A program made the translations under genes and the position numbers. A stretch of DNA of 63,917 bases, counting the filler, from Collodictyon triciliatum (lineage: Eukaryota): NCBI GenBank assembly GCA_043381765.1. It is 18 parts of 18 records of this genome, joined end to end, with 100 filler letters (N's around TTAATTAATTAA, not from the genome) between each part and the next. Parts side by side here need not be neighbours in the genome. Positions count along the whole stretch, not along the records: positions 7,092 to 10,536 come from JBHJMP010007313.1; 17 more parts are not named here. One strand, 5' to 3'. The first letter of the stretch is position 1. The number at the start of each line of letters is the position of its first letter. A model generated the notes under the pieces. The model was not told the DNA's origin and searched no databases. It saw only the letters and a program-made list of their open reading frames with translations. This document shows, in pieces, positions 3,447-32,700 of the stretch.

Positions 3447-3546
3447 NNNNNNNNNNNNNNNNNNNNNNNNNNNNNNNNNNNNNNNNNNNNTTAATTAATT
3501 AANNNNNNNNNNNNNNNNNNNNNNNNNNNNNNNNNNNNNNNNNNNN
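3447..3546. other. Artificial contig-joining linker N44-TTAATTAATTAA-N44 (first of 17)
   Basis: The same 12-mer, with stops in all six frames, sits inside N runs at 3491, 7036, 10581, 14125, 17668, 21214, 26161, 29702, 33243, 36783, 40322, 43861, 47400, 50939, 54478, 58013 and 61550. Most intervening contigs are ~3437-3446 bp; one is 4847 bp. Confidence 0.98.
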
Positions 3547-5489: not shown

Positions 5490-6917
5490 CTAGCGATAGT
5501 CATCCACCGAGCCATAGCCATACCCACCAGCAGGATCCGTCCGGGGGCGATGAGCGTCATGCTGTCCGTAGGCCGGGTTCTGGTCAGGACTCTGCTTTTG
5601 GCCTTGACCTCGACCCTGGCTATGACTCTCGTCATGGGTCTGAGGGTGATTCTGGCTCTGACTCTGGTTCTCATAAAGAGTCTGGGGGTGATTCTGGCTC
5701 TGCTGCTGATACTGGGGCGACGGGGGCGGATTCCACATGACATATTCGGGCCCGGCGCCATCATGTTCGGGCAAATGTGATGAAAGAGACTCACGCAAAG
5801 CAGGATGGGCAAGAAATGCGTGCGGAAGTGGATGGTCGACTGCAGGCGTGATGATGTAAACGGGGGAGTCGTGGGCAAAGGCAAATCCAAGGCCGGGCGC
5901 AAAGCCATCGACTGGGCCGTTCGATTCCGATTGCGATTGCGAATGAGAATGAGAATGAGAATGCGTAGGAAACGATGTGATTGGAGCTATCGCATAGGCC
6001 GTATCTGGATGCAGCACAAATGACGGATGCACAGCGGCATATGGCGGGGCACTCGAGACAAGAAGCGTGCTGCGCGGCCCACTGCGCGACAAATCTCCTG
6101 CCGACTCGTCGAAGGAAAAGGAGCCGAGTGTGCTGAGCACTTGCGTTTGGGGGCTGTGGAACATGGCAGCCTGCGACAGCGACGGATGGCACATTGGCGA
6201 GAGGCTTTCGGCTTTTGGCCTGACCAGATGGGCATTTGGCCGCTCGAACGGGCTTGTCTGGGCCACTCGCTGGCGGCCTCGTCGAGTGGCAATAGGCAGA
6301 CTGGGCTCATAGTCAACCTGCTCGTGAAGATGATGGTGATAATGATTGTGGTGATGGTCATGGAGATGATCGTAATGATCAGGGTGATTGTGGTGATGTT
6401 GATGATCGTGCGGGCGTCCACCGCGCAGGGCAGGGACCAGTCTGCGGCGGGCGTTGATGAACCAGTTGTTGAGCTGCACAAGACGCAGCCCCGTCTCTGT
6501 GCAGAGCTGAGCTTTTACTGCTTCGCTTGGGTATGGATCGTGCAGATTCTGGCTGAGCCATGTGCGCAGCGCAATCGTGGCTTCTCGTGGCAGGTTTCCG
6601 CGGCGCCGCTTTTCGGCTTCGTGCCCAACTGTCCCGTGCGTACTGCTTTTTGTAGTCCCGTGCGACGACTTGTCCTCGGAAAAATCGCACGACAAGTGCG
6701 CAGAACCCCCGTCAAACACAAAGAATGAGGCGCCCGAGCTTCCCGGCTGCAGCCGTATCGGGGCGGTCACGGCGTCCAGACGAGTGCGCGGATTAGTCGC
6801 CTCTGGTGGGGATTTGTCGCGCTGGGTCGGGTGTGGCGTGCTTTCCAAAGGATGGGCGGACTCTTGCTCAGACATATGCGGCTGCTTTGGTCGCGCTGCA
6901 CTCGGAGATGGAAACAA
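5490..6917 (-). CDS. TALE-class homeodomain transcription factor (first in-frame ATG at 6875)
   Basis: KRRRGNLPREATIALRTWLSQNLHDPYPSEAVKAQLCTETGLRLVQLNNWFINARRRL (~6435-6611): PYP loop and WFIN helix 3. His-rich and SQ-rich low-complexity tail; GC-rich and intronless. Confidence 0.92.
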   Translation of the reverse strand: MFPSPSAARPKQPHMSEQESAHPLESTPHPTQRDKSPPEATNPRTRLDAVTAPIRLQPGSSGASFFVFDGGSAHLSCDFSEDKSSHGTTKSSTHGTVGHEAEKRRRGNLPREATIALRTWLSQNLHDPYPSEAVKAQLCTETGLRLVQLNNWFINARRRLVPALRGGRPHDHQHHHNHPDHYDHLHDHHHNHYHHHLHEQVDYEPSLPIATRRGRQRVAQTSPFERPNAHLVRPKAESLSPMCHPSLSQAAMFHSPQTQVLSTLGSFSFDESAGDLSRSGPRSTLLVSSAPPYAAVHPSFVLHPDTAYAIAPITSFPTHSHSHSHSQSQSESNGPVDGFAPGLGFAFAHDSPVYIITPAVDHPLPHAFLAHPALRESLSSHLPEHDGAGPEYVMWNPPPSPQYQQQSQNHPQTLYENQSQSQNHPQTHDESHSQGRGQGQKQSPDQNPAYGQHDAHRPRTDPAGGYGYGSVDDYR

Positions 6918-7901
6918 CTTTCCTGTGTTTGTGGAGGATGAGAGGATGAGAAGAAGAGCAAGGACAAGGACAAGGACAAGGACAAGGACAANNNNNNNNN
7001 NNNNNNNNNNNNNNNNNNNNNNNNNNNNNNNNNNNTTAATTAATTAANNNNNNNNNNNNNNNNNNNNNNNNNNNNNNNNNNNNNNNNNNNNTTTTCTTTT
7101 TCTTTTTCTTTTTCTTTTTCTTTTTCTTTTTCTTTTTCTTTTTCTTTTTCTTTTTCTTTTTCTTTTTCTTTTTCTTTTTCTTTTTCTTTTCGGTCTCATT
7201 CAGCTTATAAATGGATAAAGTTCACTAAAAAGGCTGTGACTAACTTGGTTTTATCCCTTTCAAGGCACAACACTTTTTATACAACAAAAGTGTACCCGTA
7301 TATAGCAATTTATTGCACAGACAACCGTCGAATTAAGTCTGGATTGACGAAAGCAGGAACTTTGATGAATCCAAGAAACAACTTGAATAATATAATAGTA
7401 TGATTAGTATATAATAAGGCTACAAATACTTGATAATCTCATTCTATTCCTATAATCAATTATATTATTTTGGTATGCATTTATGTTATATTATCATATT
7501 AAACTTCAAAAAATGACAAACAAGCCGTTGCCTTGGCTCAGACAGAACCCACCCCGTAAACCTGTCACCAAACGTGCATTTCAAAAAAGCATACTATCCA
7601 CACTTGCGGCGGTAATCATGTTGTTTGGGGCCGATGTGTTGACTTTCAGTTGCAATGGTTATACGACCGTCATTTCGAACTGGCTGAATCGGTTCCCAGC
7701 GTTTTGTTTCAAATCACTTAAAAAATTTTTTGTGTGTGTTTGTTTGCCACAATGCACACTTTTTGAGAGTCTCGGTAGTGCTTAATTTTACATGAATTGA
7801 TTTTTTGCAGTTGTTTTTATCAAATCGACATATAGACTGAAGTTATATCAAAATTGAAAACTCTAGTTTTCTAAAGGAAAAAGTAAAGCGATGACTTTCA
7901 G

Positions 7902-9889
7902 ATGAAGAAAAGAAAATGTCTTGAGTTTGACAATATAAAGTCTGTAAAACCACACTCTCGAAATGTGAAAACATCTCGAAAGTCGATTGTAAAGAATGCG
8001 GATGACTATGACAAAATCAACGATACGATTTTATTGTTTCATAATTTGGTTGCCGACACTTATCTGCTTGCAAGATGCTACATATTTAAATCAAAACAAC
8101 TCCCAACAATCGATGAAATGTTTTTTTTTTCCGCTTTAAAGACTGTCGGAGTAGTTTCACAAGATATATCCGCAAGTTAAAAAAAAACCAGAAATGACTT
8201 AAGACATGATGGCTTTTTATCTCTATTATTTTCGATTTCTTTTATCCCGAGAAGAACGCTTTCCTTTGGTTAGACTGCCTCATGTATTGCCGTACTTGGC
8301 GAAGCAAATCTTAACAGCTTATCATAGTAACATTAAGGAGTACATTTTGTATAAAGTTTACTACGCTTTATAAATCAAACAGTTCCTAAGATGAGAATAT
8401 GACGGAAGCTATTGAAAAGGCAGGATGACAAAATAAATATATATAAAAAAAGAGTCATATTCAAGAACCTCGAAATACCGGAACAATATAAAGGATGGAC
8501 TATAACGCATTTGCATCATATCATTCCCCGCGATATTGTAAATGGTATCGAATATGACGTCAAAGTCAATCCAAATAAGTACATTCCATGTCTGATTTAC
8601 ATGAATCGCATTTTTTGAGGACATCGGAACCCAAACTGCTTCAACCGACCTCTATAAGAACTAACAATATACAATGTCATATTAGTCTAGATACTGTATG
8701 TTTGATAGATCTATTAGTATTATCTGGAAAATCATTATTACTGAAGAATATATCAGGATGCAAGGAAACCCTATGGGATGACTTCTTTGAAATGAAAAAG
8801 AGGGTCTTTCATCAAAAAGACTACAATTTTAAATACATGATACAAACAGACAGCTTGGTGGTGTCATTATTGTTTGAAAAGAAAGATATTTCAAATTCAA
8901 AATCCAATATAATCAAACAACTCAAGAATATCTCTATTCAGAAGAACTTTCCGAAGAGCAGTTATCTTTATTAGCGACAAAAAAAAAATGTTGGAGTGGA
9001 CGCAGGAAAGTTTAATATGGTTTACATTGTGGATGAGACAGGCAAGAAATCACGTTACACGGCACCCAAAAGACATGATAGCAAACCTCTTAAAAATCAC
9101 AAAATGCTCTTGCACGAAAGAAAAGTACAATTATTCAGAGACATAAATGACAACAGATTTACAAAGCGCTATTTCCTTTGGTCGCATGACTTTTGAAGAG
9201 AATCAGCAGTTTGAGACATTAATACTATCTTTAATCGATTTACAGACAGAACTGAGTAAACATAATTAATGCACTGTCGATTATGAAAAATTTCCAGAAT
9301 ATGTATCTATGAAATAAAGATACCAGATAGAATTATCCAGATTTTATGAACACGTAACTTTTCGAAAGATGAGATGGAGACAGTATGTTAATACAGAAAG
9401 AAGTGAACAGTTGCGTATGGACTGAATCGAAAAGACATTTGGCATGGATGTTGTACTGGTGTATGGAGGCTGGAGCAGAAAATGTCAGGTGAAGCATTTT
9501 ATGCCAACAATCGGAAGAGCATTACGAAAAATACTATCCAAACGTTCTGAAACATTTAGCGTAGATGAATTTAGAACCTCCAAGATGTGTTGTAACTGCG
9601 AACAAGAACTGGAATATATAATACTGAAAGGAAATGCAAAAAAAAAAAAAAAAAAAAAAAAATGAATATAANNNNNNNNNNAAGTGTATATAGATGTCTC
9701 ATATGTAAAGAATGCAATCGTTCAGAAAGCAAACAAAGTGTATTTTGGACAAGGGACTTTAAAAGCGCTAAAAATATACTCATGAAAGCCCTTTTAATCC
9801 TTCGAAAAATGCATACACCTTTCTTTAAAAAAAAAAAAAAGGATGTTGAATCTTTCCTTGCAGCCTCCACCACTACACAATCTTTGTGA
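7902..9889 (+). pseudogene. Fanzor (eukaryotic TnpB-like RuvC endonuclease), Fanzor1-like, frameshifted
   Basis: Collinear fragments: HISLDT, MIQTDSLVVSLLF, RuvC-I VGVDAG (8990-9007), FRKMRWRQY, YGGWS, RuvC-II VDEFRTSK then CCNC...CKEC zinc finger, RuvC-III WTRDFKSAKNI. No introns seen; several stops and frameshifts. Confidence 0.88.
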
Positions 9890-9972
9890 ATTATTGGTGA
9901 GACCTTGGATACTAGTGAACCAGGTTTGCCAATCGAAAGAATGCTCTACCCCTTCTAGTGAGTATTTAAAAA
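9870..9972 (+). ncRNA. Candidate Fanzor omegaRNA scaffold
   Basis: Three consecutive hairpins overlapping and following the ORF end: CACAA/TTGTG 9876-9888; ATTGGTGAGACCTTGG/CCAGGTTTGCCAAT 9893-9933 (with G-U pairs); GAATGCTC/GAGTATTT 9939-9967. This is where Fanzor/TnpB guide scaffolds usually lie. Confidence 0.5.
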
Positions 9973-10734
9973 GCAGGAAAAAGTAGAAAAAGCAGGGGGA
10001 AAAAAAAAAAAACAGGTCAGGGCTCCTGGATAGAAGCAGGAAGTCAGTATAAGGATTTAGTTGAAATGAGGCCCAAATCCGCTGCTGAACTGCTTTAACA
10101 TAACATATTTCTTGCAATAAATATATTGAATATGATCTTGATCAAGTGATACGCAGCCCAAAAACTCCGCGTCTTTTCTCATCCGATTTTGACACTCTTT
10201 GTTGCTCTAATTCAGTGCAGAGCAGATGAGTGACTCGCCGTTTCAAAAGGGTACCACCAGCATCGTTGTCGGTTGGCCAGTAAGCCTAGTTTTCGTTTTC
10301 GTTTCGTCTTTTTCTTCTTTTTCTTTTCTTCTTTTCTTCTTTTCTTCTTTCTCTTCTTTCTCTTCTTTCTCTTCTTTATCTTCTTTATCTTCTTTCTCTT
10401 CTTTTTCTTCTTTTCTTCATTTTCTTCATTTTCTTCAGTTTTCTTCTTTTTCTTCTTTTTCTTCTTTTTCTTCTTTTTCTTCTTTTTCTTCTTTTTCTTC
10501 TTTTTCTTCTTTTTCTTCTTTTTCTTCTTTTTCTTCNNNNNNNNNNNNNNNNNNNNNNNNNNNNNNNNNNNNNNNNNNNNTTAATTAATTAANNNNNNNN
10601 NNNNNNNNNNNNNNNNNNNNNNNNNNNNNNNNNNNNTATCATTATCATTATCATTATCATTATCATTATCATTATCATTATCATTATCATTATCATTATC
10701 ATTATCATTATCATTATCATTATCATTATCATTA

Positions 10735-18006: not shown

Positions 18007-20379
18007 TTAATCATTCGCCACATCTTGAATATGACTTACGGGGTCCGGTTCCTGCGGGTCATCACGGCCCTTTTGAGTTGTGAGATGTTTGGATTTCAGT
18101 ATGGGTCGGGCAGAAAGCATATCATTGAGTGATTTCTTCGACTTTGGCTAGACAGTCGCCCGCGATTCGTAAGAGTAAATAATATGAATAAGCGTAAATT
18201 ACATCGCACAATACCCTGTATATCCGTCCATCGTTACCGACTATTGACATCTGCTTAGAAAAAACTCCAGATTCCGAGGGTGACATAGGGGTGCTTAATA
18301 ATGATGAGAAACGAACAAAAAGTACAACACTGCAAAACAAATGACAGATAATTCAACATCGCATAAGACAGAGGAAATTATGAAGTTACTTCGAAGTATT
18401 TGTGATTATACCTTGGCAGAATTTCTTCTGAGCGGGCGGTAAATCCGTCTCTGGAGCCAGAGCCAGGAGCGAAGCGGTTGCATGTCAAACATCGATAGTG
18501 GACACGAGTAGCGACGGTCCCGTTTCCTTCCTCATAAAGGATAGTATGAAGCATTTCCTGTAAAACTTTAACAGATTCCTAGTATATTAATATACTTTGA
18601 GAATTCAGCAGCAATCAGAGAGGGCCTATATATCATGCATTTGTCATGAATTCACCAGTTTTTTTTGTAAAAGAAATGAGATTCACACAAAAAGGGGCTG
18701 TGATATTGGGCAAATAGCGGTAAGCACTTTTTCTGCTTTATCGTCTATTCTCTTGTGAATCTCGAGTAATTCAGCTTTCGAATCTCTTTGCTCTATCTCT
18801 TGAACGACCTAAATTTAATCCTTAGCGCCTAAACAAAACAAAACAAAAAGAAGGGAAAAGAAAGCGGGGAAAAAGGGGAAGAAAACAAGAATAGATAATT
18901 AGAATATATATAAAAAGTAACAGAAAAATGTACTTTTGTAAGGGCTTGTAGTTTGATATCAGATGCAAAGCTGCTTAGACTGGATGTTATTTTAGACATG
19001 TAATCCTACAATTGATTATTGTTTGTGGGTATGTAAGCGTATTCGTTTATATTTCAAGTACGGAGCCAGTAAAATAAAAACCTCTCCTCTTTGATAATAC
19101 AAAGTGAATAAAATTTCCATAATGCAAAATTGAAAGGAAGAATATAATAATAAAAATTAAATAATGCAAGTCTGGCAATCAATAGTCAATTATCAATTAC
19201 CCACCTTTTTTTTTTTTAAAAAAAAAATAATTCAAAATTGTCGGCAAATAGACTCCAAAGAAGTGGTGAGTTACCTGGGCTAATCTGAATCCATCCTTCA
19301 CGGTCTTTACCTCCACTTCTGCGGTAGCCAAACGAGAATCAATCTGCTTCACCATAACTGCTTCGGCTTTGTTTTCTTCCAGGGATGCTGATTTCTTTTT
19401 GTGGTCGTCTTCTAAAATTCTCACTACCCGACGCATTTCGTTTAAGTCTTCCTTCTCTGCCTTTCCAGATATTCTCGTTTCGATTGAACGTAGATCACTT
19501 GTATTTGCCTTGGATAGGAGCTCGTTAGATAGGTTTTCTACAAGCTTTTCATATCGCTCAATCCTGCGCAGTGAATTCTCTGTTATTTCAACGTTCTCTT
19601 TTCGGAGCTTGTCACGCATTTCTAGCTCTGAATATACTTTGGATATGTCAGCCTTTAAGCCAAGGTCTTTCTCCAGCTTAACAACACGTCCAGCCAACTG
19701 GCCGTCATGCAGCCAGTGTTGAGTTGTTTTCAGGTCATTCAGTTCAGAAAGCGCTTTGTTCGCTTTTGTCTCTGTATCGTCTGCCTTGTCGCTCACGATT
19801 CTCATTTGCACTTTCAATTCTCCGACCTCATGGTCTCGTGAATCGCGATTAGCACGAAAATGAATAAAATCATGCTCCACCCTGTCTAACCTGGCTCGGA
19901 TGATAGCCTCGTTCTTCTGGAATAACTCAAGCTGGTCGAAAATGCGCATTATTTCTTCGTCTTTGCGCCTGAGTAAGCGCTCCAGGTCTACTATTCGGGA
20001 TGAAAGCGCAGCATTTTTGGACTCCAGTTGCCCAATCATCTATAACGAAATCTCGTGTTTCAAAGAGAAAATGTAACAAAAACCATAATCATAATCATAA
20101 TCATAATCATAATAATAATCAGGAAAAATATAATAGGCCATATTATGAACCTTTAACTCGGAAGCATGACGCGAAAGTGTCTGTTCGTGGTTCTGAAGGA
20201 TGCAGGACAGCGCGTCCACCACCGAATCCAAGCATGTTACGTTGATGAGCTATTTCAGATAGCACATTCATAAAAAGAGATGAGATGTTGTTGATAATAT
20301 GACACTTGCGATCTGTCTATATTGGAACATGTATTTTGTTCATTTACAGTTAGGAATATTGAGCCAAGGTATCAAACAA

Positions 20380-29757: not shown

Positions 29758-32700
29758 CTCTTTACGAATCGATCAACTAGTTGCCACAGAAGCGAACAGT
29801 AAGGATTATCTAAAGAATTCCAGTATTCGATATCAATCCTTTTCTTTCTTATTTTTATGTTTTTATATTATTTAAAAAAAAATCGTATATTTCATTTTTA
29901 TTAATCTTGATGCACACTCAACAATCTAAATGTGGATTTATTGTGAACGATCTCTTAGATTTAGAACTTCATCTTTCACATTCAAATTTACTGGATGGGA
30001 CTGCTTCACTTTTTGTACTGGAGCTAAAAGATATGTCTCTACATGACATACGTGGTGCTGAGAGCAACATCTACAAAGACATAATACATATCGGGAAAAG
30101 GTCAGCCTTACTCCCCGAGATTCAAGTATCGAAATTAAATGAGAGAGGAAAAGCTCTTGTTTTCAGTGCTCAGAGGAACTATGACGGTGCAATTACAGTC
30201 GATGCTGAAATCTTCCAGCCAGTTGTTTCCATTATCCCCGACTTCATCGATGATGTATTGAATTTCTCTTTCAGCTTCATAGAGGACCTGAAAGCAGATA
30301 TAGCTTCTAGCCAAAACAGCGATGGTTCAACAGATGTTGAATCAAACATGAATGATGCTGGTAGTGCGACTAGCAAAATATATAGACAAGATAAAAAGAT
30401 AACTGATATACCTGAGTTGAACGCAAAACTCAAAGTAGCCAACTTGACCTTTCAGCTGGTGGAAGACCCTTCCAAAATGGTACAGTTTAAATTTAACTTC
30501 CTCAATCGGTCATTCCACAAATACACTTATGTATTGGACATATTTTTAACCTATCGATGTACAATTTATACTTTGCTTTAATATCATTTAGACCACCAAC
30601 GGTGTCATTGGATATTCCTACATAGAGAGCACAATTCGAATTACAAACTTATCTCGTGATTTTGAAATCATTTTCTCAAATATATCCATTTTTTCTGCGC
30701 TGATGAGACCAAATCCTTCTCATCCAACACCACTTTTGAAGCCAATGGACATTAAAGTGCAGTACAATGAGAGCCATAAAATTTTATCGTTGACAAATGT
30801 TAGTGGTGGGCGAGTGTCCTCGTCACAGGCTAGCTCTTCAAGTGGTATAACCCAGCGTGTCGTCTCGGTTGGCACTTTAATCCTTGACTTTGGGAAATTG
30901 GACATATCCTTAGCATATAGTGATATCCAGATATTACTCATAATTGCAAAGCAGTTCAAGAAAATTAAAGTATGTACTTTTGCATGAATTCCGTTCGTAT
31001 GTGCATTAACTCTCTTTTCATGAATCTATTTCTTCGAGTAAGAAAACATATCTACATGTGTTTTTGATATCTCCACCAAATTTAAGACTCTGATTTTTGG
31101 GAAAACAATCAAACATAAAAGCCGCCTGAGCCCGATGTAGAAGATATAGAAAACGAGTATGAGCCAACAGAGTCAGTCTCAGTCGAACCACCAAAACCTA
31201 AGCGAAATGCGAAACTGGACAAGGTTTAATTGTATATTCTAACACAACTATTTTTAAAATTCGCTACCGAGATAATGGACTCTTAATACAAATTCGTTTA
31301 CTCCTTTCAGAAAATGTAATCAACACAATAATATAGATTGTTGCCAGTTTCAGTGGTGTTTCTTTTGGCATTTTTAACAATATATACGGGTCTGGTCACC
31401 GCATACCAGTCTTTTCTGCATCTTTGGATGTTGATGTTAGTTAATTTTGATAATTCACATTTTTATATGGTTCTGTTCAATATATCTCTATTTGATTGTC
31501 CACGTTAATGCTATCTTGTATTGAATTGTATTTGTATTATTTATATTTCATCTTTCTTTACCTATACTTAAAAATGTAACGTTAAAAACATGATGATAAT
31601 CAAATACCCAATTTTTGCACTACAGCCTCTTCAAATTAGTGGACTCTCTGGTGCAGACGATGTTAACAGTCGCTTCACTATCAAAGGCAAGTGCGAGTAT
31701 TACAACGAGGATATGTCTTCATGGGAGGTAAAAATAAAATAAAATAATTATGTCATAATCAGGTGCCAAGATATTCATTTAAATATAATTTTATGAAGTC
31801 ATAAGGATGATTATGTGGTGATTTTCTTAAAAATGAAATTGGTATAGCCAATTATCGAACCCTTTTCGTTGGATATAACATATGACCGAGAGAGTGAGGT
31901 TTCTGCATTCTCTGTTTCTTTCCCAAGACAGCTGAATATTAACGCGAGTCAAAATATGATGAGAACTCTTGCTCGAGCGGTGAAAGCCGTAAAAGCTGCA
32001 AATGTACCATCTCGTGCATCATTACAGACCAGACAGACCACAAGCGACTATTTTCCATTTTACTTCCACAACCAAACCGGCGCTCTTGTGGTATTGGCTG
32101 ATAAATATACACTTTCGCCTGACGAGAAGGTAAATGTTTAATATACGATTATGTAAGTCCATAGTCCTCGAAATTTCACATTTTGGAACTTTTCTATTAC
32201 GTGAATATGTGAACATGTGAACATGGAATCTTAATGTACTTATCTAATTTGCATGAAGCTACCCTTGAAAGAAGATTTTCGTACTTCTATTCATGGAAGC
32301 GGTACGAAAGGGACGCTTGTGATAGACCTATACATTCCGAATATCACCGAGCCCGTCCGATATAAATGCAAACTCTTTGATAGGTAATGCATCGGATATT
32401 GTGCAAAAGAGATAGCAAGTAGCCCTTTTTTCTTACTTTTTTTTTATCTTCCTCATTTTTTTAAATAAAAAAATTAGTTCGGGTAGCAGCTGTTTGACAA
32501 GCACATACTTGAATGGGCCCAAGCTATATTATGAGGTAAACGAGAGGGGAAAGAAAAAGACTTTGACATATTTCCTGAGAAATAATTTTAGAATAAGTTA
32601 ATTATGATATATGTATCCTATAATACAATATGCTGCTATTTTTCTTTTCGTTAGTTTATATCCACCACTTAATAATAAGAGTAATTGATACATCCTGAAG

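Follow-up and report, generated by a model that had tools for sequence, protein, structure and literature searches.

The window analysed here, a 63,917-base stretch of the Collodictyon triciliatum assembly, carries at 7902..9889 on the plus strand the decayed coding region of a Fanzor1 nuclease. Within the TnpB superfamily, Fanzor1 forms the branch found in eukaryotes and giant viruses. It is a transposon-borne nuclease with a single RuvC active site; guided by an omega-RNA that is transcribed at the 3′ end of the element carrying it, it cuts matching double-stranded DNA (dsDNA) adjacent to a short motif. The window consists of 18 pieces, most of about 3.44 kb, separated by 17 artificial 100-nt linkers, each made of 44 N, TTAATTAATTAA and 44 N (examples are 3447-3546, 6992-7091 and 10537-10636). 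The relic lies on one contig of 3445 nt (7092..10536, no strand assigned), flanked by the linkers at 6992-7091 and 10537-10636, which begins and finishes in microsatellites (repeats at 7082-7217 and 10276-10558). A previous sequence-only reading of this DNA had found no transposase on "the contig"; the real contig is 7092-10536 only, whereas the absence of a transposase from it stands. The contigs joined in the window are not linked to one another, and gene neighbourhood across the linkers therefore carries no meaning. On contig 7092-10536 itself, the list of stop-to-stop open reading frames contains no other recognisable gene, and a second Fanzor1 copy is absent from the other 17 pieces: the next best tblastn match in the 63.9-kb window to P0006, an intact protein of 634 residues that is the closest full-length homologue, has an expect value (E) of 0.87.

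The coding region opens with an ATG at 7902 and closes with a TGA at 9887-9889, the stop of its last frame (both read from the sequence), and corresponds to residues 1-624 of P0006. All of its parts lie on the plus strand, and every motif and coordinate given in the sequence-only reading is found in the sequence at its position. The five or more open reading frame fragments described there are indeed fragments of one gene, but the breaks are more numerous than suggested: with about seven frame changes, the fragments run through frames 0, 1, 0, 2, another frame, 2, 0 and 2. The N-terminal part (7902..8612), equivalent to the recognition and wedge (REC/WED) domains, begins with a basic MKKRK stretch; its first segment (7902-8177) aligns in hhalign with positions 12-85 of a family profile built from nine intact homologues (profile A1, 625 positions) at E 2.8e-8. 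It is broken by a TAA at 8178, a frame change around 8181-8209 (A9 run), a 2-base surplus near 8343, a TAA at 8352 and a TGA at 8400. The middle block (8633..9121), which extends up to and beyond RuvC-I, is covered by a fragment (8579-9196) that aligns with profile positions 237-410 at a probability of 99.7 and E 1.1e-26. Its frame changes lie near 8615, 8917 and 8978 (A10 run), and frameshift-aware alignment reveals that the latter two conceal the block SEELSEEQLSLLA. In the homologue alignments, the following interval (9117..9230) has a frame change near 9117 and a TAA at 9144; it also contains an additional segment, about 34 residues long. The best-kept block (9231..9650) runs from the RuvC-II region to the first half of the zinc finger and is 49% identical to P0006 over 140 residues in tblastn, in spite of an in-frame TAA at 9267, a TAA at 9315 and a TGA at 9423. 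An A25 homopolymer and, after it, a 10-N assembly gap at 9672-9681 (together 9638..9681, no strand assigned) separate the first half of the zinc finger from the second; the frame shifts across this segment, which may differ in true length from the assembled one.

The positions expected of a RuvC active site are preserved. In SpuFz1, the Fanzor1 of Spizellomyces punctatus, the catalytic triad is given as D383, E541 and D606 (PMC11423790, PMC10432273), which correspond to positions 777, 935 and 1000 of the chain fused to maltose-binding protein in the PDB (an offset of 394, taken from alignments). In the window, the RuvC-I aspartate is encoded by the GAC at 8999..9001 in VGVDAGK (D372 of P0006), the glutamate by the GAA at 9567..9569 in DEFRTSK / DEFRTSKMCCNC (E530) and the RuvC-III aspartate by the GAC at 9755..9757 in TRDFKSAKNI (D581), and these three codons align in that order with the SpuFz1 triad, in agreement with the claim that all three catalytic acidic residues are retained. 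The triad is kept at the codon level; no protein is made. The four cysteine codons of the zinc ribbon (9588, 9597, 9704 and 9713) are also kept between the glutamate and RuvC-III, as seen in the sequence and in the alignment: the first CxxC, CCNC, is at 9588..9599 and the second, CKEC, at 9704..9715. The glutamate is relocated, as had been noted, but this is not typical of Fanzor1 in particular: all Fanzors and a subset of TnpBs are described as having the RuvC-II glutamate in this shifted position (PMC10530073).

Comparison with intact proteins places the relic within one family. With P0006 as query, tblastn returns four collinear pieces with a summed E of 2e-86, in which residues 1-239, 246-413, 418-557 and 550-624 correspond to 7902-8612, 8633-9121, 9231-9650 and 9638-9886, and a frameshift-aware alignment to the same protein finds 271 identical residues among 579 aligned positions (47%). 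A HMMER search of 1.84 billion cluster representatives with a 164-residue read-through of 9147-9638 gives 1648 matching proteins at E<=1e-3, of which 651 reach E<=1e-10; many of the best 150 matches are 600-700 residues long and are matched at about residues 420-560. A C-terminal fragment (9683-9886) aligns with A1 profile positions 550-592 at E 8.6e-13, and this fragment, the N-terminal one and the middle one fall in the correct order along the profile. Searched against solved structures, profile A1 matches PpFz1 of Parasitella parasitica (PDB 9CF0, E 5.2e-71), SpuFz1 (8GKH, E 5.2e-70, profile positions 5-601 of 625) and GtFz1 of Guillardia theta (9CER, E 7.4e-58), and besides these three Fanzor1 proteins no structure is found under E 0.1; LaTranC follows at E 0.13 and is matched through its zinc ribbon only. 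The window's own fragment directly matches PpFz1 (E 8.4e-13) and SpuFz1 (E 2.4e-8) in the PDB search. The Pfam family Cas12f1-like_TNB (PF07282) scores above its cut-off in two of the six homologues tested (P0024 and P0020). On these sequence comparisons, the stretch 7902-9889 is assigned to Fanzor1, far beyond chance similarity, and the earlier Fanzor identification is borne out both by the frameshift-aware alignment and by the profile matches to full-length solved Fanzor1 structures. Membership in Fanzor2 or TnpB was considered and rejected: among PDB structures no such chain matches profile A1 at E<=1, against three Fanzor1 chains below 1e-57.

This gene copy is non-functional, a pseudogene of the Fanzor1 family. 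Alignments to P0006, P0004, P0049 and P0034 locate about seven frame changes, near 8181-8209, 8343, 8615, 8917, 8978, 9117 and 9640-9692, together with at least seven in-frame stops, at 8178, 8352, 8400, 9144, 9267, 9315 and 9423, of which at least the last six are base substitutions. Further, ambiguous stops adjoin frame changes (9194, 9663 and 9669), and a frame-2 TAG at 8972 is bypassed if the frame changes at 8917 and 8978 are allowed. When single frames are read through, TAA, TAG and TGA are all seen in frame. Eleven of the 45 columns that are invariant in the nine intact homologues have changed, including the proline of DPGK beside the RuvC-I aspartate (to alanine) and the asparagine of RDxN two residues past the RuvC-III aspartate (to lysine). 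The copy had already been called dead, and this damage confirms it. Such a break pattern fits neutral decay. The triad and the four cysteines survive because the other 34 of the 45 invariant positions still do, and selection need not be invoked.

The relic is not alone in its genome. Words sampled from the stretch are found at 41% in X1, the run of one organism, and at 5-11% in X2, X3, X4 and X5, of which X4 is a poly-A metatranscriptome and the others are freshwater metagenomes. Public contigs were then aligned to the stretch at >=88% identity. X1 yields 249 contig pieces, of which 19 are at >=99% identity, 74 at 95-99%, 115 at 90-95% and 41 below 90%, with up to 23 X1 contigs overlapping a single position; X2, X3 and X4 add 94, 14 and 3 pieces, respectively, and the low or missing cover of some parts in X3 and X4 is uninformative either way. 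One X1 contig reproduces 8101-8426, a span that includes four of the breaks, with 0 differences, and two contigs from X3, a separate study, are identical to 8749-8851 and 8822-8973. Other copies read sense where this one reads stop: TAA becomes TCA through a C at 9268 in 6 contigs and at 9316 in 7, and at 9423 a C, with a depth of 290.9 out of 387.9, gives CGA instead of TGA. Likewise, the surplus bases at 8341, 8616 and 8630 are missing in some X1 copies (depths 25.7/46.5, 33.2/92.3 and 56.9/68.4), and the length of the A run at 8978 differs among copies. At the stops 9267, 9315 and 9423, two short NCBI proteins, P0049 and P0034, have S, S and R; their identity to the window is 72-75%, measured over 66-81 positions. 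P0034 (84 residues, from a 513-nt NCBI contig) has a frameshift of its own and, past KHFM, continues in the +1 frame relative to the true gene. The relic is one member of a diverged multi-copy repeat family in an AT-rich eukaryote with the standard genetic code, and the X1 pieces, at 88-100% identity, substantiate the earlier suggestion that it marks a Fanzor family in this lineage. This eukaryote or a near relative also occurs in freshwater metagenomes.

More distant relatives were collected in scans headed by the window fragment (alignment A2), which gave at least 544 confirmed relatives among metagenome contigs and 369 in a viral collection. None of the metagenome and viral matches listed exceeds 51% identity, and the closest intact relatives among them, about 50% identical, reside in giant-virus metagenome bins. 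A subset of 160 loci, which includes some contigs present in both collections, contains 134 that carry an open frame of >=450 codons with the family motifs. The best of these loci, L002 (the same as L081), is on a 254-kb contig named GVMAG. This contig, whose name includes the label of giant-virus metagenome bins, contains an intact 634-codon Fanzor1 gene among dense intronless genes, with a ribonucleotide reductase small chain, a PQ-loop protein and a DUF5755 protein nearby. About 320 nt upstream of this Fanzor1 is a divergent transposase gene with DDE_3 and HTH_28 domains (locus L002 1378-4639), and tblastn finds relatives of this transposase in 40 of the 160 loci, mostly upstream and divergent, some of these loci being duplicated between the collections. 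The extra segment of about 34 residues, located between the RuvC-I region and the LSxxNxxTVDY block, occurs in P0004 and P0049 as well as in the window; the P0006-type and giant-virus relatives lack it.

The repeated unit probably starts 40-70 nt upstream of the ATG. Its probable 5′ edge (7832..7901, plus strand) is placed from a jump in X1 depth, from 12.8 over 7766-7831 to 107.5 over 7832-7897, rather than from a mapped end, and contigs turn to unlike sequence before 7864. Most other copies have two extra G after 7863, and the contigs of a freshwater run diverge before 7864, beside a TA dinucleotide; the element could have its left end here, at 7863-7865, with TA as the target.

Based on the above data, we propose that the stretch is a non-functional, intronless copy of Fanzor1 from a diverged multi-copy family that has decayed neutrally, a reading that we hold with high confidence. 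It starts from direct observations, namely the homology, the breaks, the multi-copy state and the sense codons in other copies. To judge from the Fanzor1 proteins that have been solved and assayed, ancestral members of this family would have performed RNA-guided DNA cutting, and the unit may have moved as a Fanzor-only, non-autonomous element. On this reading, the copy itself has decayed neutrally, accumulating its frame changes and stops and losing 11 of the 45 invariant residues. An ancient viral origin of the family is compatible with this explanation.

Several results weigh against this proposal. When the fragment P0001 alone is searched against the PDB, it has no match at E<=1, and the C-terminal 68 residues alone return only a chance zinc-finger match, so that both are tied to Fanzor1 solely via their homologues. 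A word-based protein search with P0001 among longer proteins likewise gave no match, and Pfam, run on nine fragments of the window, returned one sub-threshold match (PF07282, E 0.03, at the first CxxC). The search for an omega-RNA is negative as well: no Rfam match lies on the contig, the 3′ flank folds no better than its shuffles (z -0.22 on the plus and -1.09 on the minus strand), and comparison with the flanks of 134 relatives' loci produced low-complexity matches only and no conserved flank, in a comparison made with distant relatives. No terminal inverted repeat is found (best score 15, below the shuffle mean of 19.4); more generally, neither inverted nor direct terminal repeats around the unit rise above chance, and no TA duplications were found. 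A transposase remnant is missing too. With the DDE_3 protein of L002 as query, the best tblastn match (E 1.9) lies on another contig, in line with what the sequence-only reading had reported; the upstream sequence on the contig spans only 810 nt, and the missing transposase means little. As regards the family, the public pieces cover at most a few hundred bases of the stretch, so an intact full-length copy could not show, and X1 may be the sample from which the window was assembled.

The frame changes themselves raise the question of whether the gene is intact in the organism and the draft assembly merely miscounts homopolymers. Homopolymers do accompany four of the roughly seven frame changes, which fall in or next to an A9 run (8181-8189), a T run (8610-8615), an A10 run (8979-8988) and an A25 run (9638-9662); in addition, one break coincides with the assembly gap, and the A run at 8978 varies in length among copies. 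Not every break, however, is a homopolymer frameshift of the kind pointed out earlier: at least six stops are base substitutions within conserved blocks, and 11 of the 45 invariant residues are replaced. Moreover, contigs from two other data sets match 8101-8426 and 8749-8973 letter for letter, breaks included, and we consider miscounting a most improbable explanation. Still harder to credit is a functional gene whose frame changes would represent short introns or whose stops would be decoded as amino acids by a variant code. Many Fanzor genes do carry introns (PMC10530073), and other copies read sense at three of the stops; however, the homologue alignment is gapless across the frame changes and leaves no room for introns, which were rejected on this ground. 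A variant code was rejected in turn, since TAA, TAG and TGA all occur in frame, and with the standard code there are open frames of 517 and 1176 codons on other contigs of the window.

A viral source deserves somewhat more attention, in which case the stretch would be a scrap of an integrated giant-virus genome, or viral contamination, instead of a transposon multiplied in its host. The closest full-length relatives, such as that of L002, lie in giant-virus bins at 50% identity; of the 369 relatives in the viral collection, 32 of the 80 loci retained are named GVMAG; and a role of viruses in spreading Fanzor1 was argued for by Bao and Jurka (PMC3627910). Against this, many copies at 88-99% identity occur in one organism's run, the contig ends in microsatellites as other contigs of the window do and is without any other recognisable gene, and no viral locus among the matches listed is above 51% identity. 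We therefore regard a viral scrap as very unlikely, and a decayed member of a host-multiplied Fanzor1 family as the preferred explanation.

A more far-reaching version of this explanation is conceivable, and we consider it rather unlikely. The relic might be one decayed copy left by a Fanzor-only element that multiplied in a freshwater eukaryote in a burst of fairly recent date; this element would descend from Mariner-Fanzor1 elements of aquatic giant viruses and be marked by its own insertion of about 34 residues after RuvC-I. Most of the breaks look private to this copy, and intact, possibly active members, with their guide RNA, could therefore still exist in that genome. If true, this would document spread from virus to host (or the reverse) and supply a new Fanzor1 orthologue.

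A close known counterpart of the relic family is SpuFz1, borne by the SPu-1 element (PDB 8GKH, 9CEU-9CEZ). Both have a single intronless open reading frame of about 630-650 codons with the D/E/D triad and zinc ribbon in the same order, and the family profile aligns with SpuFz1 over its full length. SPu-1 is described as a Fanzor-only element with 17 full-length copies, 9 of them intact (PMC3627910); the window family is likewise multi-copy. In contrast to SpuFz1, the window copy is dead, distant in sequence and equipped with the segment of about 34 residues after RuvC-I, and the inverted repeats of 30-33 nt, TA duplications and omega-RNA of SPu-1 were not found around it. RNA-guided dsDNA cleavage that depends on a target-adjacent motif (TAM) is known for SpuFz1 and GtFz1 (PMC10432273). 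In PpFz1 (PDB 9CF0-9CF3), the best direct match of the window fragment, RuvC is interrupted by a large insertion beyond profile position 454, which splits the alignment in two, whereas the insertion of the window, a small one, lies elsewhere, before LSxxNxxTVDY. The arrangement of Mariner with Fanzor1 in giant viruses, as well as Fanzor-only derivatives, was described by Bao and Jurka in 2013 (PMC3627910), and the closest intact relatives of the relic, in giant-virus bins, often share the arrangement of such Mariner-Fanzor1 elements as PGv-1 (Phaeocystis globosa virus) and HMa-1. Unlike them, the window copy has no transposase remnant in the 810 nt upstream, is repeated within a cellular genome and shows no more than 51% identity to the viral loci among the matches listed. 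Fanzor2 and TnpB share with the relic the RuvC and zinc-ribbon core (Cas12f1-like TNB, PF07282), and a typical TnpB is about 200 residues shorter than this protein.

The relic matters little in itself, as Fanzor1 genes and relics are already catalogued by the thousands in eukaryotes and giant viruses; one survey lists 3655 unique Fanzor nucleases in 22,497 assemblies (PMC10530073). Its modest value lies in what it points to, a high-copy Fanzor1 family in the host with other members in which the stops of this copy are repaired. As the nearest intact relatives belong to giant-virus elements that pair Fanzor1 with a Tc1/mariner-like transposase, a survey of the full genome could yield intact orthologues and add data on the traffic between viruses and hosts.

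Expression of the family was considered on the basis of X4 and set aside. The poly-A metatranscriptome contributes three short contigs, on 7982-8210 and 8456-8834, at 88-100% identity, one of them identical over a mere 41 nt, which is too little to claim transcription or splicing. One X4 contig skips 8575-8756, a segment with AT..AG ends.

The remaining features of the window lie on other contigs. At 5490-6991 (minus strand), a long open frame encodes a TALE-type Homeobox_KN domain (E 4e-18) with histidine-rich tracts and runs into the contig end. The contig at 40378-43816 (minus strand) is one open frame throughout, with about 19 WD40 repeats followed by Ephrin_rec_like repeats, and is open at both ends. 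Being on separate contigs, this gene and the homeobox gene provide no linkage information for the Fanzor1 relic. Open frames of 255-525 codons at 58880-60457 (minus), 19197-20039 (minus), 29814-30581 (plus) and 53524-54327 (plus) have no Pfam match at E<=0.001. Lastly, the region 56117-58016, with long open frames on both strands and in more than two frames, an extreme AT skew of 0.53 and a GC content of 0.48, resembles a low-complexity repeat, not genes.

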